From a virus: 36,559 nt of DNA. Below, piece by piece: positions 7,040 to 36,483 of the stretch. The notes under the pieces are model-generated. The model worked only from the letters and a program-made list of their open reading frames with translations, was not told the origin of the DNA and searched no databases. Position 1 is the stretch's first letter. Each line of letters opens with the position of its first letter. The stretch covers positions 1-36,559 of IMG/VR virus record IMGVR_UViG_3300045988_045243; one strand, given 5' to 3'. The position numbers were made by a program, and so were the translations under genes.

Positions 7040-7175
7040 AAAGATAGGGTAATTTAGGTGAGTATGCGTAACTAAAAAATAGCAGCGGACTATATGTCTT
7101 GCCGGACCGTCCACTGCTCATCTTTCTAAGGACATTATAACACATGCGTCCTTAGGAAACAAGGAGGACGATGTT

Positions 7176-8237
7176 ATGTGTACGAAAAAAGAAGAATTAA
7201 GAGACACAATATTAACAGGTATGCAGCCATTTTTAAATGCGCCACTTATGGAGATTCTGAACCAAGTAGTAGTGCAGGCGCTCTTCGGGATTGAGGTGAC
7301 AGAGAGTGAGACATTGCCGGCAACGATAGACGATACGAACCAGCGGATCATAGCAATCTATATGACCAAGAAAGCGCCGAAGCTAAGTCCAAAGACAGTA
7401 GAGTATTATATGCTCACAATCCGAAACTTTATCGAGTTCGTTCAGAAATCTCTTTTAGACGTATCCGACATGGATGTGGAGTTTTATTTACAGTCCTATG
7501 CCAGAAAAGGTAATCAAGCAAGTACGATTAATAACGAGCGCCGGAACTTAAGTGCTTTCTTCACTTGGATGAGAAAGAGCCATTTGAGAAGTGACAATCC
7601 AGTGGACAGTGTGGAACCGTATCGAGAGATGGACAAGCCTATTGACCATCTGACCGATGGTGAACTGGAAGCATTGAGAGATGCGTGTAAGGTTAAGGTG
7701 AGAAATAAAGTAACAGACTTGGACGAGTATAAAGAGAGCCTTAGAGACAGGGCGCTGTTGGAGTTTCTCCGGAGTACCGCTGTGAGGGTAAGCGAATGCG
7801 TATCGGTAAACGTGCAGGATATCAACTGGCAGTCTGGCGAACTTATGGTCTATGGACAGAAAAACAGGACGTGGAGAACCGTCTGCTTAGATGATACCGC
7901 GAAGTACCATCTGAAAAAGTACATCGATAGCCGAAACGATAAAGAGCCGGCACTGTTTATCTCCAGCAAGCGAGACTGTAAGCGATTAGCGAAACCGGGA
8001 ATTGAGAGTGCCATCGGCAGGATAGCAGAGAGGTCTGGACTTAAGAGACGAGTATATCCGCATCTCTTCCGTAAGACAACAGCAACCAATATGGTTAAAC
8101 GCGGCTGTCCGAGAGAATTGGTAGCGTTTTATCTTGGTCATAAAAACGGAGATGCGAGAACGCTTAATAAACATTATGCTGCTACTACTCCGGATCAGGT
8201 ACTTGGAGCGTTTAGGAAGTACGGTGCGGCTGCATAG
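7176..8237 (+). CDS. Tyrosine site-specific recombinase (XerC/D-like phage integrase family)
   Basis: N-terminal SAM-like core-binding domain. Catalytic pattern: R (TAVRVSE), HLFRKT (H-x-x-R), LGH and a terminal KHY tyrosine. RBS is AAGGAGG. Confidence 0.85.
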   Translation: MCTKKEELRDTILTGMQPFLNAPLMEILNQVVVQALFGIEVTESETLPATIDDTNQRIIAIYMTKKAPKLSPKTVEYYMLTIRNFIEFVQKSLLDVSDMDVEFYLQSYARKGNQASTINNERRNLSAFFTWMRKSHLRSDNPVDSVEPYREMDKPIDHLTDGELEALRDACKVKVRNKVTDLDEYKESLRDRALLEFLRSTAVRVSECVSVNVQDINWQSGELMVYGQKNRTWRTVCLDDTAKYHLKKYIDSRNDKEPALFISSKRDCKRLAKPGIESAIGRIAERSGLKRRVYPHLFRKTTATNMVKRGCPRELVAFYLGHKNGDARTLNKHYAATTPDQVLGAFRKYGAAA

Positions 8238-8345
8238 CAACTAACAGTATAGAACCTATACCAGTAGTGCGTGTCCTATACTGCTGGTTGGGTTAGATAG
8301 AATTAACTAAGTAACTAAATTAGTATTTAGGAGAGGTAATAGAAA

Positions 8346-8780
8346 ATGGAAGAGAGCGTTGACCTTGAATATTATGATTTGAAAGGTGGAACACACCACA
8401 TTTACATGGCTCCAGGAAATGTGCAGTGGATTTGCAACATTCTGTTTAATACAGAGAAAATGTTTGATGACTTTATCAATGATCCACCAGAGTGGGCAAA
8501 AGATATAGCCGGATGGGATTGGGATATGCAGATAAAACGTGATCGTATCCACAAAATACGAATGCAGGTCGAAGAAGGACTTGGATATAGCACAGAGGAA
8601 CATTGGAAGAAATGCTTAAAGAAACGTGGAAAGAAGAAAAATGATGATATTGGCGGAGATGCTTTAGAACTTGCATTTAATAGAGCGTATGAAAAGAAAA
8701 ATGAAGTTCCAAAAGAACCGACACAGGAAAAACTAGTCAAAAAGGATAAACAGATGAGCATCTTTGACATCATGAAATAA
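8346..8780 (+). CDS. Hypothetical protein
   Basis: ORF with RBS GGAGAGG. Confidence 0.6.
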   Translation: MEESVDLEYYDLKGGTHHIYMAPGNVQWICNILFNTEKMFDDFINDPPEWAKDIAGWDWDMQIKRDRIHKIRMQVEEGLGYSTEEHWKKCLKKRGKKKNDDIGGDALELAFNRAYEKKNEVPKEPTQEKLVKKDKQMSIFDIMK

Positions 8781-8805
8781 ACTGAGATTTAGTGAGGTGA
8801 TAAGT

Positions 8806-8961
8806 ATGCAAACTGTAGTTAGAACATATCCAACACCAACAAGATACAATTGCGATCCAGATTGTTACAAGATTTTAGACAAATTATTGCGTGATGGCTG
8901 GAAAGTAATTATGTGCAACAAGATAGGGAACGATCTGGAATATATCTTAGAAAAGGATTAA
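8806..8961 (+). CDS. Small hypothetical protein (51 aa), absent from the ORF track
   Basis: ATG follows AGTGAGGTGA. Hand translation: MQTVVRTYPTPTRYNCDPDCYKILDKLLRDGWKVIMCNKIGNDLEYILEKD. Confidence 0.5.
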   Translation: MQTVVRTYPTPTRYNCDPDCYKILDKLLRDGWKVIMCNKIGNDLEYILEKD

Positions 8962-8995
8962 GTCAAAGAATTAGATAAATTTTAAGGTGGGAAGA

Positions 8996-9283
8996 ATGGA
9001 TGAAAAGAAAATTGTAGAAGCGTTAGAAACTCTCAGTAAAACAATTGTTGATTTAAAAATTATGGAAGACGAAACGAATGGTGTTTTATCTGCAAATGTT
9101 TCGCCTTATGAAACAGCAATCGAAGCACTGGAAAAGCAGTTGTCGAAGAAAGTAATAGATAGAAGTTTAGTGAAAGATAATGAAGTCGTTGTTGGATCTG
9201 TTGGCAGATGTCCTTGTTGTAATGAAATTATTGATGATACTACGACAGTTTGTGATTGCGGACAGAAACTTAATTGGGCATAA
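8996..9283 (+). CDS. Hypothetical protein with a C-terminal zinc ribbon
   Basis: ATG at 8996 follows AAGGTGGGA. C-terminal motif is CPCCNEIIDDTTTVCDCG. Confidence 0.6.
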   Translation: MDEKKIVEALETLSKTIVDLKIMEDETNGVLSANVSPYETAIEALEKQLSKKVIDRSLVKDNEVVVGSVGRCPCCNEIIDDTTTVCDCGQKLNWA

Positions 9284-9349
9284 TAAATTATTTGAGTTTC
9301 CTGTAAGTCTCTTTTGAGTGGACTCGTAGGAAACTTTGGAAGGTAAGAA

Positions 9350-9580
9350 ATGAAATTATTAGATAAGCTTGAAAAATATTTTATAAACGTCTGTATTATA
9401 AGTGGAATAATTGCTCTTATGGGGTTAATTATTTTAGGATTTGGGAACGAAAATGCATTTTATAAAATGCTTATTTTGTCAATGAGAAGTTTTTTAATCC
9501 TAATATCTTTATCTGTAATAAGAATTTTATTAGAGGTGTTATTTAAGAGAATGAAGGAGTGGAATAAATGGAAAAACTAA
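9350..9580 (+). CDS. Small membrane protein (two predicted TM helices)
   Basis: Hydrophobic segments CIISGIIALMGLIILGF and ILSMRSFLILISLSVIRILL. Confidence 0.55.
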   Translation: MKLLDKLEKYFINVCIISGIIALMGLIILGFGNENAFYKMLILSMRSFLILISLSVIRILLEVLFKRMKEWNKWKN

Positions 9581-9789
9581 AGAAATGTCCGTTTTGCGGT
9601 GGAGAAGCAAAAATAAAAATGGAAAGAAAAAATAATGTTGGTTGGACTATTTGGTGTGAATGCGAAAAATGTTATGCAAAAGCGGAAGGATATTGTCCTA
9701 GTATGCAAAATGCAGACAACGCACTAAAAAATATTAATACTTGCAAAATAAATGCAATCAAAGCATGGAATAGGAGAGTGGAAGAATGA
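9568..9789 (+). CDS. Lar-family restriction-alleviation-like protein
   Basis: LKKCPFCGGEA...WCECEKC...AIKAWNRR matches the CPFCG...C..C...AWNRR pattern of the Lar family as I recall it. Confidence 0.65.
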   Translation: MEKLKKCPFCGGEAKIKMERKNNVGWTIWCECEKCYAKAEGYCPSMQNADNALKNINTCKINAIKAWNRRVEE

Positions 9790-9968
9790 TTTTATTTTGT
9801 CCTGACTTAGTCGGAAAAGAAGAAGTAAAAGCAGTGATGATTGGTCATGGAGATTTTGTAAGACCAGTATTGAATCCGTGCATAAAAGAAAAATGCGTAG
9901 CTTACAGAGATGGATTTTGCAGAAAGTACCATCAGAATGTGGAGGTAGAAGAAAATGAAAATATATGA
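9786..9968 (+). CDS. Hypothetical protein
   Basis: ORF overlapping its neighbours by a few nt, consistent with translational coupling. Confidence 0.45.
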   Translation: MILFCPDLVGKEEVKAVMIGHGDFVRPVLNPCIKEKCVAYRDGFCRKYHQNVEVEENENI

Positions 9969-10269
9969 TCCAAATATTTATAAAGGAGTACATACAGTAA
10001 AAATAACATTGCAGAAGTGGGAATACAAAGGACACATTATCCGTCGTGTATGTGGAAACTGCAAAGGGAGAATTGTTTTAGATTTCGATTTTGAATGCGA
10101 AGATAATTTTCCTGATAACGATTGTCAACTGGAATACTATGAAGATCGAGATTATTTTTCTTGCGTTTTGAAGGGCAAAAACGGCAATACATTAGAGTGT
10201 AGCGGAGACGCAGAAGATATGAACGATATGATAGTTGGCGTTAAGATTATTGATTTTTGTGAGGAGTAA
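9955..10269 (+). CDS. Hypothetical Cys-rich acidic protein
   Basis: ORF with an upstream GGAGG. Confidence 0.55.
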   Translation: MKIYDPNIYKGVHTVKITLQKWEYKGHIIRRVCGNCKGRIVLDFDFECEDNFPDNDCQLEYYEDRDYFSCVLKGKNGNTLECSGDAEDMNDMIVGVKIIDFCEE

Positions 10270-10271
10270 TT

Positions 10272-10691
10272 ATGAATAGAGAAATCCTTTTTAAAGCAAA
10301 GAGAAAAAATAATGGTGAATGGGTGGAAGGGTATTATCTAAACATAGCAAAAATAAACCGTTTTATCTGCACTGGGAAAATAAAACTTGATGGAGCGGTA
10401 AAGGGCATTATAGCTCCTGAAATGTATGAAATCGACCCAGACACCATCTGCCAGTTCACAGGACTTACCGACAAGAACGGTAAGAAGATTTGGGAGAATG
10501 ATATTCTTAGAAGAGATGGATATTGGGATATAAGAATTGAATTTGAAAACGGTGCATTCATGGTTAGAAATGCCGACAAGGTGCAGTATATCAATCGTGT
10601 TGCATGCACACCTATTAGTACATTCGATATAAAAGCGTACGAAGTAATCGGCAACATTTTCGATAATGCAGATTTGTTGGAGGTGGAGTGA
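10272..10691 (+). CDS. YopX-family protein
   Basis: ILFKAKRKNNGEWVEGYY ... ICQFTGLTDKNGKKIWENDIL is the typical YopX signature. Confidence 0.75.
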   Translation: MNREILFKAKRKNNGEWVEGYYLNIAKINRFICTGKIKLDGAVKGIIAPEMYEIDPDTICQFTGLTDKNGKKIWENDILRRDGYWDIRIEFENGAFMVRNADKVQYINRVACTPISTFDIKAYEVIGNIFDNADLLEVE

Positions 10692-11661: not shown

Positions 11662-11839
11662 AGAACGCAGAGACAGACACCTGCAGAAGCTGGATCGGGA
11701 GCAACACCATGAGGAGCTGGAAGGGTGCAAGGCATCTGACAAAGCAAGGGAGAGATTCCAGCGTCCGCCATATCAAGTCATGGACGTGGCGGCATATATG
11801 GCAAAGAAATATGACATAAAAAGGGAGATGAGAGAGTGA
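11642..11839 (+). CDS. Hypothetical basic protein
   Basis: ORF in the operon; the exact start is uncertain. Confidence 0.45.
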   Translation: MVMIVHKERRDRHLQKLDREQHHEELEGCKASDKARERFQRPPYQVMDVAAYMAKKYDIKREMRE

Positions 11840-12252
11840 AAGAGTTATTTAGCCGGTACAGACGTAACAGGCGTGAACTGGATCTGATAGCGGATCAGAT
11901 TGACCGCTTGAATGAACGACTTGAGGATGTGCCGGAGGTAGCAGGGAAAGTTACAAAGTCAAGCAAAGACTTTCCGTACATAGAAGAGCATATGACTGTG
12001 CGGATGAAAGAACCGAAGGAGGCTACTCTGATTAAGGATAAGCTCCGGAAGAAAGAAAAAAGACAGGCACAGCTTTTACAAGAGATTACAAAGGTAGAGA
12101 ACTTTATTGATAGTCTTCCAGAAGGAATTGAGAAGCAAATCATGGAGATGGTATACCTGGAGGGGATGAGTCAAACTGATGCAGCGGAGATGCTAGGGTA
12201 TACGCAGGCAAGGGTATCCCAGATTATAAGAAACACATTGAAAGATTTATAA
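11836..12252 (+). CDS. Sigma-70 region-4-like / DUF1492-type late transcriptional activator
   Basis: C-terminal HTH EGMSQTDAAEMLGYTQARVSQIIRN. It is the last gene before the packaging module. Confidence 0.65.
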   Translation: MKELFSRYRRNRRELDLIADQIDRLNERLEDVPEVAGKVTKSSKDFPYIEEHMTVRMKEPKEATLIKDKLRKKEKRQAQLLQEITKVENFIDSLPEGIEKQIMEMVYLEGMSQTDAAEMLGYTQARVSQIIRNTLKDL

Positions 12253-12339
12253 CATTTATAATTTAGATATGTTATAATTATTCTAGAAAAGCTAGAATTA
12301 TTTCTAGTCTTCCTTCAAAAATCATAAAATCTTAGAAAG

Positions 12340-12370
12340 TACACCTTGTAGAAATGCAGGGTGTATTTTT
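12340..12370 (+). terminator. Rho-independent terminator
   Basis: TACACCTTG-tagaaatg-CAGGGTGTA followed by TTTTT. Confidence 0.6.
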
Positions 12371-12437
12371 GTGCGAAGAATTTATAATAGAAATGTTTGG
12401 TGTTTTATTATACAATGAAAAGAAAAGGGGTGGAAAT

Positions 12438-13295
12438 ATGAAATTTAAAGTAAAATATAAGAGACAAAAATATAAAGTATCATTATGTGATAAAATAAAG
12501 ATAATAATTATAAAATTTATTTTAACCTTAAAGAGAATTACAAGAGGAGCAATACGATTAATTCCACATAACCTAACTCTTTATATATTTGTTACGATAT
12601 TTTGGATTGTTTTTGGTGTAATAACATATCGCAGTGGTATAGTTTATAAAGCTCCTGATAAATATACTATTTGGGATACTATCTGGGAATTAAAAAATTC
12701 ATATTTCACATCAGTTGTACTAACATTGCTAATAACAAGCTATAATCAAAATAAAGGGTATAGAGATAAATTAGAGAGACAACATAGTATCTATTATGAT
12801 ATAATAAGTGATTTTGATAAATTATTTGCTCCTTTTATAGGAGAGGAGATTCTACATTATATGCCCTTTTATAATGACAAATGTCTTTCGGATACGATGA
12901 ATTATATTATGAATAAAAAACTACTGGAACAGTTTGATGAAAGCAGATTAATTGAATCTATCAGCGATGTTTTAGAAAAAATCACATTATTAAAACACCT
13001 TGAAAGGCAAGGAGGTATTATAGAAAATCGCAATAGAGATTTACTGAAAGATATTATTAAAACAGAGAATGATTTGATGAAAGTAAAAGCTAATCCTAAA
13101 ACTATTATAGGAAAATTGAAGGATATTTCGAATGAATTGTTTCAAATTATTGAAGAGATAAGGAGACCTTGGCGGCGTGATAATAAGTATGATATAAAGA
13201 TACTTCAACTATTAAATAAAGAAAATGATGTAGAAGAAGATTTTTATTATAAAATGCATTTATTTGGTCATACTTTTGAGGATGATAATAAATAG
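12438..13295 (+). CDS. AT-rich moron: membrane protein with two or three N-terminal TM segments and a helical cytoplasmic domain; function unknown
   Basis: ATG at 12438 follows AAAGGGGTGGA. TM segments include LYIFVTIFWIVFGVITY and SVVLTLLITSY. Terminators flank it on both sides. Two 60-nt lines counted by hand gave 22-23% GC, against 55% in a line of the adjacent terminase gene. Confidence 0.7.
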   Translation: MKFKVKYKRQKYKVSLCDKIKIIIIKFILTLKRITRGAIRLIPHNLTLYIFVTIFWIVFGVITYRSGIVYKAPDKYTIWDTIWELKNSYFTSVVLTLLITSYNQNKGYRDKLERQHSIYYDIISDFDKLFAPFIGEEILHYMPFYNDKCLSDTMNYIMNKKLLEQFDESRLIESISDVLEKITLLKHLERQGGIIENRNRDLLKDIIKTENDLMKVKANPKTIIGKLKDISNELFQIIEEIRRPWRRDNKYDIKILQLLNKENDVEEDFYYKMHLFGHTFEDDNK

Positions 13296-13326
13296 AAAGT
13301 CTTTATGATAAAACGAGAAATAGATA

Positions 13327-13350
13327 AAAGCACCCCGCAGGGTGCTTTTC
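13327..13350 (+). terminator. Rho-independent terminator
   Basis: AAAGCACCC-cgca-GGGTGCTTT followed by TC. Confidence 0.7.
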
Positions 13351-13494
13351 TAATACAGAAAACAATCGTACAGCGTGCACAGCTCCAGCGGATCTACATT
13401 TCATCCTTACTCCTTAGTGGTCGCAATCGGCGGTCATAATGGAGCTGGCAGGACTGTATTTTTTATATAATTAACCGGAATTGAAGGTGGTGGT

Positions 13495-13962
13495 GTGGCG
13501 AATTATGAAAACATAAAAGATTATGGTTTTGATAAACGAACAGCGAAGGAACAGCGAGAGATTGCTGTTATGGGCGGTAAAGCAAGTGGAGAAGCGAGGC
13601 GCCGGAAAGCAGATTTCCGGAAGACGCTGAACATGCTTTTGACCGCTAAAATAGATAGTGAAGAATGGAAACCGGTTCTAGAGGCGCTTGGTGTTGAGTG
13701 CACTTTGGAATCGGCTATGTTAATGGCGCAAATTAAAGAGGCTATGGCAGGAAATACAAAGGCAGCTACATTCGTGGCTAAGTATTCCGGACAATCTGCT
13801 GAACCAGAGGAGAACAGACGAAACCGTGAAGCCGATACTGAGTTAAAACAGGCAAGAAAAAAGGCTGTCACAGGAGAAAATGAAACGGATGAAGCACTTG
13901 ACAAGCTTGATCAGATACTGAAGGAGATGTATGAGAATGCAGTTAAGCAAGAAGCAGAATGA
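13495..13962 (+). CDS. terS: Terminase small subunit
   Basis: GTG start after GAAGGTGGTGG. It sits directly upstream of, and overlaps, TerL. It has a GGKASGEARRRK basic region and AMAGNTKAATFVAKYSG. Confidence 0.65.
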   Translation: MANYENIKDYGFDKRTAKEQREIAVMGGKASGEARRRKADFRKTLNMLLTAKIDSEEWKPVLEALGVECTLESAMLMAQIKEAMAGNTKAATFVAKYSGQSAEPEENRRNREADTELKQARKKAVTGENETDEALDKLDQILKEMYENAVKQEAE

Positions 13963-15256
13963 GTACATTGTGAATGCAACCCACAGATGGAACATTAAGT
14001 CCGGTGCGGTTCGTTCGGGGAAGTCTTATGTGGATACTGCATTTGTAATTCCGTTTAGGATACGGGAAAGAGCTGGAAAGCCTGGGCTGAACGTTATACT
14101 TGGAGTATCAAAAAGCTCTATCGAACGAAATGTCTTGTCTCCAATGCGAGAAATCTACACGGATAAGCTGATTGGTACGATTAACAATCGGAACATTGCA
14201 AGGATATGTGGGGAGGATGTATATTGCCTTGGCGCTGAAAAAGTTAGCCAAGTAGCAAAAATACAGGGAGCATCCATCAAGTATTGTTATGGTGATGAGA
14301 TTGCGAAGTGGAACAAAGAAGTGTTCCAGATGTTGAAATCCCGTCTTGATAAACCGTACAGTTGCTTTGATGGAGCCTGCAATCCAGAGAACCCAACACA
14401 CTGGTTAAAAGAATTTCTGGATAATGTGGAACTGGATATATACCTTCAAAGATACACGATATTCGATAATCCATATCTTCCGGAAGAATTTGTTGAGCAG
14501 CTTTGCAAGGAATATGAAGGTACAATATATTATGACAGATTGATTCTGGGATTATGGAAACGTGCGGAAGGAGCAATCTATAAACGATTTGCAGATAATC
14601 CAGAATCATTCCGGTGTCAGATTGTAGATGAGCCCGCGCCGGATAAAGAGTATAAGCAGTTTCGAAAGGAAGATATTACTTCAATAGAGATTGGGCTTGA
14701 CTTCGGAGGAAATCAGTCCGGTCATTCTTTTGTCGCAAGAGGGTACACGGATGATTATCGGGACGTGATTGCCTTAAGATCAAAACGAATCATGGCAAAG
14801 GACGAAGATGAGGATATCGACAGTAATATGTTAGATGCAATGTTCTGTGAGTTTGTGCAGGAGGTAATAGATAAGTATGCAGTTGTCGTGAAACGTGGAG
14901 AATATGTGGAGTACTGCAATGTGGAAACGGTTTACTACGACAATGCGGAGACAGTTCTTGGTAATTCTATCAGGAACGCTGTAGAAAAGCAGTTTCCGTG
15001 GATCAGTGTGAGGAAGGCAAAGAAAGAGATTATCAATGACCGGATACGATGTACCGTCAAGCTCATGGGGGCAGGACGGTTTTTTATTACAGATGATTGC
15101 GGAAGCTTAAAAACAGCTTTATCGGATGCGGTGTGGAATAAAGAGATTATTGGAAAAGATGAGCGTCTTGATGATGGCAGCACAGATATCGATAGCTTGG
15201 ATGCATTTGAGTACACGATTGAGCGTGATATGAAATACCTAATAGAAGAGGTGTGA
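13931..15256 (+). CDS. terL: Terminase large subunit (PBSX/XtmB-like)
   Basis: Walker A GAVRSGKS and Walker B-like YCYGDE. A C-terminal nuclease half carries acidic residues. Size is typical. Confidence 0.85.
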   Translation: MRMQLSKKQNEYIVNATHRWNIKSGAVRSGKSYVDTAFVIPFRIRERAGKPGLNVILGVSKSSIERNVLSPMREIYTDKLIGTINNRNIARICGEDVYCLGAEKVSQVAKIQGASIKYCYGDEIAKWNKEVFQMLKSRLDKPYSCFDGACNPENPTHWLKEFLDNVELDIYLQRYTIFDNPYLPEEFVEQLCKEYEGTIYYDRLILGLWKRAEGAIYKRFADNPESFRCQIVDEPAPDKEYKQFRKEDITSIEIGLDFGGNQSGHSFVARGYTDDYRDVIALRSKRIMAKDEDEDIDSNMLDAMFCEFVQEVIDKYAVVVKRGEYVEYCNVETVYYDNAETVLGNSIRNAVEKQFPWISVRKAKKEIINDRIRCTVKLMGAGRFFITDDCGSLKTALSDAVWNKEIIGKDERLDDGSTDIDSLDAFEYTIERDMKYLIEEV

Positions 15257-31016: not shown

Positions 31017-32408
31017 CTACAAAAAGTCAACACTTTCTACCGTGTAATTTTCATTCAAATGAATTTCTTCTATGGTAGATCTCCAGAATGTGCGCCGATT
31101 TTCCGGTGTTAATTGTTCATATATTTTCTTGAAATCGGAGCGCAGGAGTTCTTCCAGATATGTAAAATCTTTTTCGGCTTCCGGATGGATAGCGGAAAGC
31201 TCTTTCAGTTCTTTTTCAATCCGGTCATATTCAGCACTGTAATATTCCCATGTGATGCGGTCCTTCTGGAAGAGTAGATTTAAGCGATCCAGTTCTTTGT
31301 TTAGCTTTTCTGGTGTTCGTGTATCTTTCATTTTCTTTTTCTGTTCGCAGATCTTCGTATATCGAATCTGATATTTCTTATATTCTTCTGATAAATTTTC
31401 AAGTAGATATTTTTCGATGAGGTTTTGACTGACTCGGTGTCGGCTGGTACATAACCGATCAAGGATGGCACGGTTGCAGCGATAATAGCAATAGGTCCGC
31501 TTTTCTTTTGTCTTCCGGTTTATGATAGAAGAGCAGCCAGTACCGGCTAGTTTTTGTCCGCATACTGGACACCTTATCAGCCCGCTGAATAAGTAGATTC
31601 TTCCGGATGGAGTCTGCTTTATGTTTTTTCTAGAAAGCTCTTGAAGCTGAAGCCATTCCTGTTCCGTGATATAAGCTGGGCAGTAGGGGATGCCACGGTA
31701 GGTGCCTTTGTAAAATTCACTTGATACCATAGTGCGTAGCATACTATAAGAGAAATCTGGATAATAATGCTTCTGCATATATCTTACAGTTTCCGATTTA
31801 TTCTGGTGAGTGAGCAGATATTTGAAAAAAGCTTCGGTGGCTTCTTCCGTTTCCGGATCTTTGATCATTCGCTTCACACCATCCACAACACCGGACTTAT
31901 AACCAAACCCCATGTTAGCCTCTCCGAAAATTAATTTGCCTTGCCGGATAGATGCCTCATTTACAAATTTAATACGCTCAGAAGTAGTATCTACTTCATT
32001 TTGACCAATAGACAAGACAACATTAAGCTGCAGTCGTCCGTCTCTGGTTTCCATGTTGATACCCGGCTCGGATGCAGACAGCCAATGTACGTCATATTCG
32101 TCAAGGATGTCCTGTACTTTGTAGAAATCGGAGAGATTACGAAACCACCGATCAAGACGCCAGAAGAGTATAATATCAATTTTCCCGGCTTTTACATCTT
32201 CAAGCAGTGCGTGAATAGCCTTACGCTTTTTTAGTTCCTTACGGGCAGTTTTGCCCTCATCAGCATAGATCCCTACAACGATCATATTATGTTCTTTGGC
32301 GTAACGTTCTAAATATTCCCGTTGAGCTTCCAGAGACTTTCCGTGCATCATTTGCTCTGATGTGCTGACACGGATATAGATTGCGCAGCGTTTTATTTTT
32401 TCTGACAT
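31017..32408 (-). CDS. int: Large serine recombinase (phage integrase)
   Basis: N-terminal resolvase catalytic motif CAIYIRVSTSEQ, a recombinase domain, a zinc ribbon CPVCGQKL...YYRC and a C-terminal coiled coil. 463 aa. Confidence 0.9.
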   Translation of the reverse strand: MSEKIKRCAIYIRVSTSEQMMHGKSLEAQREYLERYAKEHNMIVVGIYADEGKTARKELKKRKAIHALLEDVKAGKIDIILFWRLDRWFRNLSDFYKVQDILDEYDVHWLSASEPGINMETRDGRLQLNVVLSIGQNEVDTTSERIKFVNEASIRQGKLIFGEANMGFGYKSGVVDGVKRMIKDPETEEATEAFFKYLLTHQNKSETVRYMQKHYYPDFSYSMLRTMVSSEFYKGTYRGIPYCPAYITEQEWLQLQELSRKNIKQTPSGRIYLFSGLIRCPVCGQKLAGTGCSSIINRKTKEKRTYCYYRCNRAILDRLCTSRHRVSQNLIEKYLLENLSEEYKKYQIRYTKICEQKKKMKDTRTPEKLNKELDRLNLLFQKDRITWEYYSAEYDRIEKELKELSAIHPEAEKDFTYLEELLRSDFKKIYEQLTPENRRTFWRSTIEEIHLNENYTVESVDFL

Positions 32409-32616: not shown

Positions 32617-32727
32617 AACAAGACAACTGGGAAAGATGGGTGCACTCCATCCGACCCGGGCAAATAATTAAGTTACTATTGAAATAGTCGTCCTATTCTT
32701 TGTCAGGGAGCAGGACGGCTATTTTCT
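32617..32727 (+). ncRNA. Putative sRNA of about 110 nt, convergent with the small toxin ORF (candidate type I antitoxin)
   Basis: It is bounded by the promoter above and by a hairpin (CGTCCT..AGGACG, 32689..32717) followed by CTATTTTCT. The only ORF is 11 codons with a poor RBS. Confidence 0.3.
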
Positions 32728-32802
32728 ATGTGTAAAAGTCAGAATTGCTATAAGTAAATTGCAAGCTGTCAAAAGTATCATGAACTCTTCGTAAGTACTC
32801 AT
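32719..32802 (-). CDS. 27-aa hydrophobic peptide, holin-like toxin (Hol-Tox / type I toxin-like)
   Basis: Hand translation: MSTYEEFMILLTACNLLIAILTFTHRK. Strong RBS GGAAGAGGTGGTG. The MSTYE...hydrophobic...basic-tail pattern resembles 'putative holin-like toxin' peptides of Firmicutes. Confidence 0.5.
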   Translation of the reverse strand: MSTYEEFMILLTACNLLIAILTFTHRK

Positions 32803-32886
32803 AGACACCACCTCTTCCGTAAGACTCCGGAACAGATGGAAAGCTGTCCTTCCCAGTTGTCTGGGTAAATGCATTATTTAATTGTT

Positions 32887-32910
32887 CCCCTGCCCGCTGT
32901 GGAGCAGGGG
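32887..32910 (-). terminator. Hairpin downstream of the HNH gene
   Basis: CCCCTGC-N10-GCAGGGG. The T-run on the minus strand is weak. Confidence 0.35.
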
Positions 32911-32919
32911 TGGATATAG

Positions 32920-33888
32920 CTAATAGAGTTTAGAGCCTTTCTTTCGATTACAACGCCAACAAAGCGTTTGTAAATTATCCTCAGTAGTTAAACCACCTTT
33001 AGAAACAGGGACTATATGGTCAATTTCTAATAAGAGGTTTGGTTCTTGCCTTATAGAAGCACCGCATTGTTTACAAGTAAAATTATCGCGTTCTTTAATT
33101 TGTTGGCGGAGCTTGCTGGTCATTAGCGCACGCTGACCAGCAGCGCTTTTTTTGAATTTAATTTTTTCAGATAAAAATAAAATGAATCTGTTTAGATTAT
33201 CTGGATCCATAACAACGTCACACTTTGTGGCAGCGTTACCACCAGAACTTGTATACTGAAACACATATCTTGGGAAATATGCTGTACTCATATCTACTTG
33301 TTTAAAGCCAAGATTTTGCTCTAGTTTTTGTTTACTAAACTTTTTAATGAGTGTTGGGACTTCATTCTGTATGCTATCTAAAATTTTCTTTTTTTCATCG
33401 TTTAAATGTTTTTTTCCTTCTTCAGCTGCTTCAAAATTGTTCAAAACATTTTCAAAACTTGACAAATCTTCTTCTGTAGCTTTTATTCCAAAGTACTTAC
33501 ATATATACTCAAATGGTTTTTTTCGAGCATTATCACAAACAGTACGAGAGCAGTTGTGTATGTTCGGCGCATATTCTTGATTTTTCAAGTATTTTCTTTG
33601 ATAATTCCAGCTACTTGCATCTTTGTAATTTGCATTTCCATAGTCTGTTTTATCAGAAATAAGGCTAGTGTGTTTAAGGTCTTCGATATGCTGGTTCAGA
33701 TCGTTGCAATCGTCAATATAATTTGTTATTTTTTGTTTTATTTCCAAGAACGAAGAGCTTTTGTAGTAGTAAATTTCATATGCTTTCCAAGCGATATATA
33801 CCAGTGCTGCAATCAAAAATAATGGCCATATTGCGCTAAACAAAGATACAATTAAACACAAAACGATTATTCCTAAAATGATTTCCAT
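32920..33888 (-). CDS. Membrane-anchored HNH endonuclease-domain protein (candidate defence/exclusion gene)
   Basis: Two N-terminal TM helices (IILGIIVLCLIVSLFSAIWPLFLIAALVYIAW) and a central region of about 230 aa of unknown function. The C-terminal HNH motif is CKQCG...EIDHIVPVSKGG..NLQTLCWRCNRKKG. One 60-nt line counted by hand gave 23% GC. Confidence 0.8.
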   Translation of the reverse strand: MEIILGIIVLCLIVSLFSAIWPLFLIAALVYIAWKAYEIYYYKSSSFLEIKQKITNYIDDCNDLNQHIEDLKHTSLISDKTDYGNANYKDASSWNYQRKYLKNQEYAPNIHNCSRTVCDNARKKPFEYICKYFGIKATEEDLSSFENVLNNFEAAEEGKKHLNDEKKKILDSIQNEVPTLIKKFSKQKLEQNLGFKQVDMSTAYFPRYVFQYTSSGGNAATKCDVVMDPDNLNRFILFLSEKIKFKKSAAGQRALMTSKLRQQIKERDNFTCKQCGASIRQEPNLLLEIDHIVPVSKGGLTTEDNLQTLCWRCNRKKGSKLY

Positions 33889-33920
33889 AGTTTCTTCCTC
33901 TCTTTCCTCTTTTGACCGAC

Positions 33921-34391
33921 CTACATTGAGAAATCTATCCTACCAACATTTAAGTTGGGGATGAACATAATATAATAATTATCCAGCGTGGTTCCGACGC
34001 CGTATTTGTTGCGGTAACATGCCAAGCATTCTTCCAGAAATTCTTCTGTTACTTCTAGGTATTCAGCAATTTCGAATCTGCTCTGGCATCCATGCTCGAA
34101 CGCTTCGATGATACCGGACAGCCCAATCAGCTTATTGTAAGCCCACAAGCGTGCTTGACGTTCCTGTTTTCGGTTTCCGGTCAAATCCATGTCTAAGATA
34201 TTTCCGACAGAAGTGTGATGGTGACCGAGCTCTTCAGCTAGAGTGCAAGCCTTTTTCTTGGATGTCTCTATATCTTTTCTAATACCTATTTTATTTCCTT
34301 TTATACGCCCATCACTAGAGCGTAGCGGGAGTTCCTTCACTTTAAGCCCTGTATCGTTTGCTTCATCTAAAAGTGCTTCGTAATTGTTCAT
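33921..34391 (-). CDS. ImmA/IrrE-family metallopeptidase
   Basis: LAEELGHHH zinc-binding-like motif. The gene is immediately downstream of the XRE repressor. ATG at 34391 follows GGAGGTG. Confidence 0.75.
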   Translation of the reverse strand: MNNYEALLDEANDTGLKVKELPLRSSDGRIKGNKIGIRKDIETSKKKACTLAEELGHHHTSVGNILDMDLTGNRKQERQARLWAYNKLIGLSGIIEAFEHGCQSRFEIAEYLEVTEEFLEECLACYRNKYGVGTTLDNYYIMFIPNLNVGRIDFSM

Positions 34392-34444
34392 CGTATAACA
34401 CCTCCGATGCAAGTTTAGCATATTAGATGGTCAATAATTAGGAC

Positions 34445-34930
34445 TTACCACTCACCGTCCATTAAGTCGTCATCGTGCTTACGCATTTCATCCGTGACTT
34501 CGATGTCAGTGCGTTCGTGGGCTGCCTGAACTTCTAAATCAGTTTCCATATTTTGTAAAGATAAAAGTTGATCGATATAGTTGTCAGCTTTCTTGCGGTT
34601 TATTTCAAATAATCGAAGATATTTAATGAAATGATTTTTTTCACTTGGAGACAAAGAAGATATGTTCTCTATGGTTTCAAATAGATTGGCATTTGAGAAT
34701 ATATTTCCTATATCTTCATCAGTTACAGGCTCCCACCCCATTAAATATGACGGTGTAGTTTCAAGAGCTTTTGCAAAGGCAATAATTTTTGATTGTGGTA
34801 AATCTACAAGCCCTTTTTCTATTTTTGCTATCATACTCTTATCAGCGTATCCCATTTTGTCAGCTAATTCTGATTGAGTTAAATGTAACTCGGTTCTTCT
34901 TTCTTTTATGTTCTTATATAATTGAAGCAT
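34445..34930 (-). CDS. XRE-family HTH repressor (CI-like)
   Basis: HTH LTQSELADKMGYADKSMIAKIEKG. It is divergent from the Cro-like gene. Confidence 0.85.
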   Translation of the reverse strand: MLQLYKNIKERRTELHLTQSELADKMGYADKSMIAKIEKGLVDLPQSKIIAFAKALETTPSYLMGWEPVTDEDIGNIFSNANLFETIENISSLSPSEKNHFIKYLRLFEINRKKADNYIDQLLSLQNMETDLEVQAAHERTDIEVTDEMRKHDDDLMDGEW

Positions 34931-34950: not shown

Positions 34951-34979
34951 ATAATATCATAGGATAGAAAATAATTCAA
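34951..34979 (-). promoter_or_regulatory. Candidate repressor promoter
   Basis: On the minus strand: TTGAAT, 17 nt, TATTAT. The -35 element overlaps operator copy 1. Confidence 0.4.
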
Positions 34980-35040
34980 CATTTTTGTGAAAAATGGTTG
35001 ACACAAATTCAACAGGATGTTATAGTAATGGTGTTGAATT
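34973..35040. promoter_or_regulatory. Three 9-bp operator-like sites AATTCAACA (34973, 35006) and inverted TGTTGAATT (35032)
   Basis: Exact 9-mers read directly from the sequence. They overlap both divergent promoters. Confidence 0.5.
34998..35026 (+). promoter_or_regulatory. Candidate early lytic promoter
   Basis: TTGACA, 17 nt, TATAGT. Confidence 0.5.
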
Positions 35041-36065: not shown

Positions 36066-36191
36066 ATGAAAAGAGAGGATGATTGGATCAAGGAAACAGA
36101 TAAAAAAATAATCCACTACATATGGACTATTTTCCTCAGCATGATGATTTCCATTATAACAACTTTGTCAGTAGTAGCGTTACTAGGGTAG
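36066..36191 (+). CDS. Small membrane protein (41 aa), absent from the ORF track
   Basis: ATG directly follows the upstream TAG and comes after GAGGAGGTGGGG. Hand translation: MKREDDWIKETDKKIIHYIWTIFLSMMISIITTLSVVALLG. Confidence 0.4.
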   Translation: MKREDDWIKETDKKIIHYIWTIFLSMMISIITTLSVVALLG

Positions 36192-36483
36192 TAAAAAAAG
36201 AAACAAGAATAGGTGTAAGTATACTCCGAAACAGAAAAGATTTGATAGAAACCCACGTAAAGTACTTTCTGTGCAAGCATTTATGTGAAAGTTTAATTCC
36301 TATCACTCTTTCATTTCGGACAATTTCATCCAAATAACCGTTATCTGTAAGATATTTGATGGCAGCTGATACGAGAGGATAGGGAGCAATGTCCGAAAAA
36401 GGTTCTTTATCAACGTAAAACATACAAGTGTAATTTGGTGAAGATTCCAAGGCTTTAATAATTTTTTTTGATAGCTGATCCAT
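36154..36483 (-). CDS. Hypothetical protein (wHTH-like N-terminus, hydrophobic C-terminus), spanning the circular junction
   Basis: ATG at 36483 follows AAAGGAGAAAAAT. It is transcribed divergently from gene 117..488 across the junction. Confidence 0.6.
   Translation of the reverse strand: MDQLSKKIIKALESSPNYTCMFYVDKEPFSDIAPYPLVSAAIKYLTDNGYLDEIVRNERVIGIKLSHKCLHRKYFTWVSIKSFLFRSILTPILVSFFTTLVTLLLTKLL

Follow-up and report, generated by a model that had tools for sequence, protein, structure and literature searches.

The DNA analyzed here, referred to as the window, is the whole stretch of 36,559 nucleotides (nt) of the IMG/VR virus record IMGVR_UViG_3300045988_045243 (positions 1 to 36,559). 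On its minus strand, at 32920..33888, it contains a complete gene coding for a membrane-anchored HNH nuclease of 322 amino acids (aa), placed in the lysogeny module between the repressor genes and the integrase. An initial annotation of the window had proposed that this gene is a single-gene defence or superinfection-exclusion factor, and the present analysis supports that interpretation as a strong candidate. The reading preferred, with a confidence a little short of even, is that the gene is prophage cargo and that its product would be a cytoplasm-facing, membrane-sequestered nuclease, made in the lysogen, which would cleave incoming phage DNA in the manner of the SNIPE protein. The domain anatomy, the conservation of the family, the genomic slot, the neighbours and the fusions on which this reading draws were established directly.

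The HNH gene and its flanks

The HNH gene is bordered by three recognizable genes, all on the minus strand and all confirmed by Pfam, so that its placement between int and the immA/xre pair stands as initially described. On the upstream side there are an Xre repressor (34445-34930; HTH_3, E 1.6e-10) and an ImmA/IrrE metalloprotease (33921-34421; Peptidase_M78, E 2.8e-10). On the other side the slot is closed by a large serine integrase of 463 aa (31017-32408) with Resolvase, Recombinase and Zn_ribbon_recom domains. The stop codon of immA is followed by a gap of 32 nt, within which a purine-rich ribosome-binding region, AAAGAGGAAAGAGAGGAAGAA, can be read from the sequence (33892..33912, minus strand).

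Consensus scans gave a divergent pair of promoter-like sites placed between xre and a cro-like gene. The site on the minus strand (TTGAAT-17-TATTAT with TG, 34951..34979) is putatively the promoter of an xre-immA-HNH unit, while the stronger one on the plus strand (34998-35026) would serve the cro-like and antirepressor genes. Consensus and terminator scans detected neither a promoter nor a convincing terminator between xre, immA and the HNH gene. This, together with the short gap after immA, makes it likely that the HNH gene is transcribed in the lysogen by read-through from xre-immA, and not from a native promoter of its own as had been supposed.

Two further traits attributed to the gene held only in part. 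The downstream hairpin is present: it has a 9-bp stem (CCCCUGCUC/GGGCAGGGG) and a 6-nt loop (32887..32910, minus strand), begins 9 nt past the stop codon, and a 55-nt segment around it gave -18.2 kcal/mol with RNAfold. It is not followed by a U-tract, and therefore it is not a canonical intrinsic terminator; it was also absent from the list of the terminator scan. Concerning composition, the gene has a GC content of 0.330, compared to 0.406 for the window, 0.412 for int and 0.421 for immA. It falls within the lowest 5.7% of segments of the same size. It is AT-rich, but only moderately, and there are three other AT-rich islands in the window.

Domain organization of the protein

The translation of the open reading frame (ORF), which starts with ATG, is exactly the sequence quoted in the initial annotation. 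Its C-terminal part, aa 271-320 (32929..33078, minus strand, as are all the segments described next), is the HNH nuclease domain. Pfam HNH (PF01844) matches aa 272-320 with E 4e-15 and 56 bits, over a cut-off of 21.4, and a second family, HNH_5, matches the same region with E 5e-11. The canonical motif that had been reported there was found complete (CKQC...DH...N...CWRC-N). The predicted zinc ligands are C272, C275, C310 and C313 (CxxC...CxxC), near-invariant across the family, and the predicted catalytic residues D290-H291, N305 and N314 are all present.

An AlphaFold2 model, obtained from a 34-sequence alignment with a predicted local distance difference test score (pLDDT) of 87 and a predicted template modelling score (pTM) of 0.78, begins with a long N-terminal helix; a helix-rich domain containing three strands comes next, and a linker helix then leads to the HNH finger. 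The latter displays the beta-beta-alpha-metal core, with strands 287-291 and 306-310 and helix 311-320. It is preceded by the linker and pre-HNH helix, aa 246-270 (AGQRALMTSKLRQQIKERD; 33079..33153), of which residues 258-267 are helical in the model.

The N-terminal hydrophobic anchor, aa 1-37 (33778..33888), was delimited by hydropathy scans and can be either a long helix or a two-helix hairpin. In the window protein it is a single unbroken hydrophobic stretch, drawn by AlphaFold as one helix (2-43). In the alignment of close homologues a polar loop stands midway, between two hydrophobic halves, and for this reason the hairpin is favoured. Of the two N-terminal transmembrane (TM) helices initially proposed, the anchor itself is thus confirmed, and the number of helices is one or two.

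The middle domain, aa 40-245 (33154..33771), is helix-rich with a three-stranded sheet and belongs to no known family or fold. Within it are a variable loop of low confidence (aa 73-109), the conserved motifs YF-S--F, DCNELN, NCS, PFKYxCKYF and YxFxYxSxGGN, and the invariant residues K131, F210 and Y212, the last two within an invariant F210-x-Y212-x-S-x-x-G motif that sits on the three strands of the model. The absence of a recognized motif in this region had been remarked from the start, and it persisted in every search made. No match above noise was found for aa ~40-255 in Pfam, PADLOC, PHROGs or NCBIfam, the library hits covering only the nuclease core; a family profile run against all PDB sequences gave no match for the middle domain (best E 0.57); and a Pfam scan of 26 diverse members, taken singly, yielded no consistent middle-domain hit.

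The structural searches agreed with these results. With the full model as query, Foldseek against PDB and BFVD returned hits to the HNH core only, among them Gme HNH (4h9d), ScoMcrA, the Cas9 HNH domain and many phage HNH proteins. A model of the domain alone (pLDDT 83) found nothing better than E 0.5 in the PDB. The structure prediction of the central domain suggested in the initial annotation was thus confident, and no matching fold was found for it in either collection. Lambda exonuclease, MGME1 and SSO0001 appeared scattered in the domain-only search, at probability ≤ 0.06; the kinship with PD-(D/E)xK nucleases that they might indicate was not trusted, because the middle domain lacks conserved acidic and lysine motifs on its strands.

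Size, spread and conservation of the family

A homologue search that covered 5.8 billion proteins returned 120 full-length relatives of the window protein, with 69–99% identity, which shows the ORF to be a real gene. Most of them are unnamed and a few are called 'HNH endonuclease' or 'HNHc' (Clostridium scindens, Anaerostipes, Allisonella, Caudoviricetes). An exhaustive HMMER search, with only the middle region (aa 40-255) as query, gave 249 cluster representatives (50% identity), and for 157 the E value was < 1e-10. Nearly all the full-length representatives share the same order of parts: one to four hydrophobic, TM-type helices, directly followed by the middle domain and then by the HNH.

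The family extends well beyond the close relatives. Scanning GTDB, with one genome per species and a pattern derived from a 17-sequence alignment, revealed relatives in at least 551 species genomes of many phyla. The best 80 of these have 48–78% identity and span Bacillota, Actinomycetota, Saccharibacteria and other lineages of the candidate phyla radiation (CPR), Pseudomonadota, Bacteroidota, Fusobacteriota and Gastranaerophilales; such identities across phyla indicate frequent horizontal transfer. No description of the family was found in the literature searched. It is, then, a large, uncharacterised and phylogenetically broad family, which occurs also outside prophages.

Column conservation in the diverse alignment rises along the protein, from 0.25 in the anchor to 0.45 in the middle domain, 0.62 in the linker and 0.68 in the HNH. 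Among close homologues too, the anchor is the most variable and fastest-evolving part (highest entropy) and the HNH is almost invariant. The catalytic Asp-His dyad is kept in all 120 close homologues and in 61 of the 68 family representatives that cover the region, a retention that shows the catalytic site to be under selection. The representatives without the dyad are P0140, P0158, P0168, P0194, P0202, P0206 and P0242.

The lysogeny region gave no match in a megablast search of 50,697 phage records, and with tblastn only two records covered most of the protein: an unannotated faecal contig and gp29 of the Mycobacterium abscessus prophage prophiGD13-2. The latter, annotated as 'HNH endonuclease', is 39% identical to the window protein and belongs to a three-gene cassette (gp27-gp29) oriented opposite to the surrounding early genes, a layout that is typical of lysogen-expressed cargo. 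A separate observation concerns an actinobacterial-type member of 896 aa (P0220; L174:6569-9259), which carries a C-terminal extension with RNase_T exonuclease, TerB, BRCT and Lsr2 DNA-binding domains; its locus is bordered by transposases.

The prophage slot and the mobility of the gene

When the window was compared by blastn with L001, L002 and L003, a 1.1-kb segment was found in common with the prophage L001 at 97.8% identity. This segment (32877..33989) starts 101 nt before the ATG of the HNH gene and ends 43 nt beyond its stop codon, thus including the hairpin. Both prophages match again across the integrase (95%). Their immunity genes, the repressor included, are different, and so is the DNA between the shared segment and the integrase, which holds a PBECR3 gene in L001 and a small Hol-Tox-like ORF in the window. 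The HNH gene thus moves as a self-contained, discrete cassette.

The position of the gene was examined in IMG/VR, where 140 relatives were found and 79 loci were analyzed. A helix-turn-helix (HTH) repressor lies up to three genes upstream in 64 loci, ImmA is present in 37, a tyrosine or serine integrase lies up to three genes downstream in 50, and both repressor and integrase occur in 48. The gene therefore occupies the same slot in many temperate phages that differ in their repressors and in the type of integrase. The same placement was seen in the closest genome loci. In the temperate phages of gut Bacillota, the gene is nearly always found between repressor/ImmA and integrase.

When 1,402 ORFs neighbouring the family gene, taken from 85 loci and the window (86 sequences), were clustered all against all, no conserved partner gene emerged; the only recurrent neighbours were HTH repressors, ImmA-like proteases and integrases. 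A conserved immunity or antitoxin partner was accordingly rejected.

The slot had been described as a known hotspot for defence genes, and the data bear this out. Besides the 48 loci with repressor and integrase, there are prophages whose 463-aa integrase is identical and which are inserted at the same site of the chromosome, yet with different cargo, so that the space between repressor/ImmA and integrase is a cargo hotspot with other defence-like genes. One such prophage has an AAA_15/AAA_21 ATPase and a MethyltransfD12 (Dam-type) gene (L179:2295-4827) and another one has a 350-aa nuclease-like protein with an HSDR_N domain (L183:3395-4447), both behind a LexA-type repressor (HTH_3 plus Peptidase_S24). 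In one copy of the window-type prophage (L181:6716-11392), PBECR2-like, 954-aa unknown and MmeI-type restriction-modification genes replace the usual NMT1 neighbourhood beyond the integrase.

The position and mobility of the gene bear on a non-defensive explanation, namely that it encodes a selfish or homing HNH endonuclease, or an HNH used by the phage for its own packaging or replication. The mobile cassette would fit this, and in PHROGs the protein is best matched by generic phage families named 'HNH endonuclease', with which it shares the HNH core and the occurrence in phage genomes. But the similarity is limited to the nuclease core, of some 60–100 aa. The large terminase gene (13931-15256, plus strand) is 17.5 kb away and on the opposite strand, the HNH gene being in the lysogeny module and not inside a conserved gene. 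An anchor and a middle domain of this kind, both conserved here, do not characterize homing or packaging enzymes, Pfam found no NUMOD, AP2 or IENR modules in the window protein, and the family is also present at chromosomal loci of cellular genomes without phage genes nearby. A packaging or homing role was rejected on position and architecture, and this whole explanation is considered very improbable.

The breadth of the family raises a different possibility, that the protein has some other cellular role and is only secondarily carried by prophages, for instance the restriction of conjugative or transforming DNA, or nucleotide scavenging or DNA uptake in reduced-genome bacteria. Members in Saccharibacteria, Kaiserbacteria and Moraniibacteriota, housekeeping neighbourhoods in Pseudomonadota and Bacteroidota, and the frequent transfer to which the identities across phyla point are all in line with it. 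On the other hand, no context is as strong or recurs as often as the lysogeny slot of prophages and the defence neighbours, and a neighbour census showed no link of the family to competence or conjugation genes. Such a role seems improbable compared to that of a prophage-borne nuclease acting on incoming phage DNA.

Predicted membrane topology

The orientation of the protein was approached through the charges flanking the TM segments. In single-TM members there is essentially no N-terminal flank, with Lys or Arg in it in only 3 of 27, while 18 of 44 two-TM members have Lys or Arg in that flank; about three to four of these residues occur within the 15 positions following the last TM segment. 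The soluble part of the window protein contains nine cysteines, the four-Cys zinc site included, and the RNase_T, TerB, BRCT and Lsr2 domains fused to one member are cytoplasmic domains. These charge, cysteine and fusion-partner patterns favour a disposition in which the middle domain and the HNH would face the cytoplasm, while the fusions to Ltp described below point in the opposite direction.

Comparison with SNIPE

The initial annotation considered the tethering of a DNA nuclease to the membrane as unusual. A precedent has since been published, SNIPE (PD-lambda-1; Saxton et al., Nature 2026), in which an N-out TM helix is followed by three parts that face the cytoplasm (N-out, C-in): the DUF4041 middle domain, a helix and the GIY-YIG nuclease (PMC13190303). 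SNIPE cleaves the DNA of lambda while it is being injected, so that phage DNA and the DNA of the cell are told apart by where and when DNA appears at the membrane; it associates with ManYZ and the tape measure protein, its defence is direct, not abortive, and it turns toxic once its anchor is removed (PMC13190303). Among its homologues the N-terminus is variable and the nuclease conserved (PMC13190303). The idea that tethering would place a nuclease at the site of DNA entry, advanced in the initial annotation, has therefore gained an experimental precedent.

The window protein resembles SNIPE in being the product of a single gene carried in prophages, in the succession of N-terminal anchor (one or two TM helices), helix-rich middle domain of about 200 aa, linker helix and small C-terminal nuclease, and in the variable anchor with conservation rising towards the nuclease. 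In addition, a real SNIPE homologue occupies the same prophage slot adjoining a relative of the window gene (see below). There are also differences. The nuclease is a zinc-finger HNH and not a GIY-YIG/T5orf172 domain, and a TM anchor is found in >90% of the members of the HNH family as compared to 66% for SNIPE.

With respect to common ancestry, the SNIPE gene was recovered through published primer sequences and found in an E. coli lambdoid prophage, and a 26-sequence alignment of its family was built; the homologues collected carry PF10544, PF13455 and PF13250. Comparison with this alignment by hhalign gave a probability of 0.2%, for the whole window protein and for its middle domain alike, and homology was rejected. 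An 'ELGF' string common to SNIPE and the window family was not significant. The window protein gave no hit to PF13250 (DUF4041) at E ≤ 1, nor was this among the 25 most-matched Pfam families listed for 26 relatives; T5orf172 and MUG113 gave no Pfam hit in the window protein, and its PADLOC matches, all to HNH-domain families, included no PD-Lambda-1 model. So, while the strategy of an entry nuclease is already known from SNIPE, the parts that compose the window protein are unrelated to it.

Ltp fusions and defence neighbours

Another line of evidence comes from the genes and domains associated with the family. In 12 near-identical IMG/VR loci of one prophage lineage (L098-L109), the family gene is directly followed by a stand-alone Ltp lipoprotein gene whose product (e.g. 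L099:1027-1710) has the lipobox LTAC and three PF07553 repeats. Phage TP-J34 has Ltp as its superinfection-exclusion protein; the gene belongs to the lysogeny module, the protein blocks DNA injection, and a site within the tape measure protein has been proposed for its binding (PMC3952083). Another prophage, L097 (IMG/VR UViG_3300045988_168577), is a sister of this lineage and has in the position of Ltp, between the HNH family gene and a serine integrase, the gene of a 484-aa SNIPE homologue (7159-8610, plus strand) with T5orf172/MUG113, which matches the SNIPE alignment in hhalign with a probability of 100% and E 1.6e-49. A further Ltp-like gene (L040:6901-7746) was observed upstream of a family gene, on the opposite strand, in one genome locus.

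Fusions were also found. In two family clusters (P0133 and P0134) the anchor, middle domain and HNH are continued by 3–6 Ltp repeats. A complete type I Zorya operon directly precedes the gene of the Psychrobacter fusion WP_369958166.1 (714 aa, six repeats; its cluster has 48 members) in one finished genome and two metagenome contigs (L171-L173). In the finished genome (Psychrobacter sp. CLB018, CP166085.1; L171:32-10145) the operon comprises a ZorA-like protein, ZorB with MotB_plug, ZorC with EH_Signature and the SNF2 protein ZorD, and the fusion gene stands 489 nt past it on the same strand. A P. glacincola member of 363 aa, without Ltp repeats, belongs to the same 90% cluster as this fusion. 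Elsewhere, another family member is few genes away from GmrSD, and scattered defence-model hits appear among the two genome neighbours on each side of family genes: type I restriction-modification, AbiEi, SspH, MADS, SoFic, PD-T4-3 and PADLOC candidates.

The window protein itself has neither a lipobox nor a PF07553 repeat. Like Ltp, which is expressed from the prophage, it is encoded by temperate phages of Gram-positive bacteria, within the lysogeny module; the difference is that Ltp is extracellular and blocks injection without a nuclease. Nevertheless, the Ltp associations allow an alternative in which the anchor is N-in and the HNH faces outwards, so that the protein, alone or with Ltp, would degrade DNA from blocked injections or extracellular DNA. 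Membrane-anchored extracellular beta-beta-alpha-Me nucleases do exist (EndA), and the entry nucleases EndA and NucA are the model for it. It would accommodate the fusions, in which no TM segment intervenes before the Ltp repeats, and the adjoining stand-alone gene, which codes for a lipoprotein with a lipobox. It is at odds with the charges, which follow the C-in pattern in both one- and two-TM members; with the nine cysteines of the soluble part, including the four-Cys zinc site, since exported Bacillota proteins are usually cysteine-poor; with the member fused to the cytoplasmic BRCT, Lsr2, RNase_T and TerB domains; and with the precedent of SNIPE, shown to be N-out, C-in. This surface disposition, which keeps some weight mainly because of the Ltp fusions, is regarded as improbable, and the cytoplasm-facing nuclease is preferred to it.

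The Zorya neighbourhood and the effector resemblances of the HNH core lead to still another alternative, that of an abortive-infection effector. In this case, the anchor or middle domain would sense a perturbation of the envelope, by injection or by a holin, and the nuclease, released or activated, would degrade host and phage DNA so that the cell dies. The architecture expected is the same as for the preferred model. The HNH resembles in PADLOC the effectors of Septu (PtuB) and Zorya II (ZorE), a family member stands beside a Zorya operon, which senses envelope perturbation, and many prophage morons are abortive infection systems. Against it, no release mechanism was found, be it a protease site, a partner gene or a second-messenger domain; the closest architectural precedent, SNIPE, gives direct defence; and Ltp and SNIPE, the neighbours described above, act at entry and not by cell suicide. 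An abortive effector is thus considered unlikely, although less so than an outward-facing nuclease, and direct cleavage of the entering DNA remains the preferred reading.

Comparison with other known systems

The search of PADLOC-DB v2.0.0, proposed in the initial annotation, gave no full-length model; only the HNH core (aa ~230-320) matched, to REase_II, PtuB, ZorE and mREase_IV. The resemblance to Zorya, which is membrane-embedded and whose nuclease effector acts on DNA where it enters the cell, lies in the link to the membrane and in a weak match of the HNH core to ZorE models. The ZorE equivalog of type II Zorya (NF041791) scored 21 bits versus a cut-off of 600, on the HNH core only. Also unlike Zorya, the window protein has anchor and nuclease in one polypeptide, and there is no ZorA or ZorB beside its gene, which is flanked by ImmA on one side and by a small ORF and then the integrase on the other.

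The McrA-like or type IV HNH nucleases and the Gme HNH nickase (5zmm, 6ghc, 4h9d) share with the window protein the fold of the HNH subfamily, the CxxC...CxxC zinc site and the preceding helix. They are soluble, with modification-reading domains (SRA, SBD), in contrast to the anchored window protein with its unrelated middle domain.

Proposed mode of action

From the comparisons above, we infer the topology, the expression in the lysogen, the nuclease activity, the target and any protection phenotype of the window protein. The gene would be constitutively expressed in the lysogen, probably via xre-immA read-through. The N-terminal segment would anchor the protein in the cytoplasmic membrane, with the middle domain and the HNH in the cytoplasm, and this tethering, probably together with auto-inhibition by the middle domain, would keep the nuclease off the chromosome. 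Once another phage starts to inject its DNA into the lysogen, the variable anchor together with the middle domain would engage the entry complex, the entering DNA or both; the contacts suspected are the tape measure protein and host membrane proteins. The HNH would then cut the incoming DNA, resulting in direct, non-abortive immunity. The mechanism would be that of SNIPE, with an unrelated middle domain and with HNH in place of GIY-YIG.

Several observations weigh against this proposal. It was mentioned that no homology to SNIPE is detectable, which makes the window protein an analogue and not a member of that family, and the mechanism an analogy. The topology is a prediction from charge rules only. 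In the Ltp fusions the HNH is joined to the repeats without a TM segment, and a cytoplasmic nuclease would require these repeats to be cytoplasmic too, in spite of the stand-alone Ltp being extracellular. In the window protein the isoelectric point of the middle domain is 7.7; the domain is thus not basic, and DNA binding by it is not suggested. The only grounds for co-transcription with the repressor are the 32-nt gap and the undetected promoter and terminator. About 10% of the representatives lack the Asp-His dyad while keeping the rest of the protein; in some lineages the protein may thus be decaying, or have a role that does not need the nuclease. Finally, many copies outside Bacillota are surrounded by housekeeping genes and have neither a prophage nor a defence island close by (e.g. 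in Ferriphaselus).

Taking all this into account, some anti-phage or exclusion role, with the abortive and surface variants included, is probable. The specific form of it proposed here falls just below an even chance, as stated at the beginning. It can be taken a step further by supposing that the SNIPE strategy, that is, the discrimination of self and non-self by location, has had an independent, non-homologous origin in this family, and has spread with it across most phyla including CPR. The middle domain would then be a new module for the recognition of the ejection complex, and the Ltp links would reflect the capture of the tape measure. This extension is held still more tentatively.

Were the proposal true, the location-based strategy would have arisen by convergence and would reach much further than the DUF4041 family. 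Gram-positive commensals of the gut, and the prophages that they carry, would come within it, the competition among phages would be shaped by it there, and a new protein domain that engages the injection machinery would have been recognized. The very common annotation 'HNH endonuclease' beside prophage integrases would find an explanation, and the gene would offer a compact single-gene tool against siphovirus infection. The slot formed by repressor/ImmA, cargo and integrase is in turn a place to mine for further entry-blocking genes in Lachnospiraceae phages.

Other features of the window

The AT-rich islands of the window include two at 8531-10430 and 11801-13670, with GC content down to 0.26. 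The second one contains, just upstream of the terminase genes, an ORF of 313 aa (12354-13295) with no significant Pfam match, which may be another moron. Concerning the immunity genes, a look-up of the ImmA of the window gave one short contig only.

The small ORF between the HNH cassette and the integrase (32719-32874, minus strand) probably starts at an internal ATG near 32802 and ends with MSTYEEFMILLTACNLLIAILTFTHRK. Its match to Hol_Tox (PF16935) is sub-threshold (E 0.0046, 17.2 bits, cut-off 23.3), and it may encode a type I toxin-like peptide. Beyond the antirepressor gene there is an ORF of 109 aa (36154-36483, minus strand) without Pfam match, which has a hydrophobic C-terminus and recurs in the related prophages L177 and L178.

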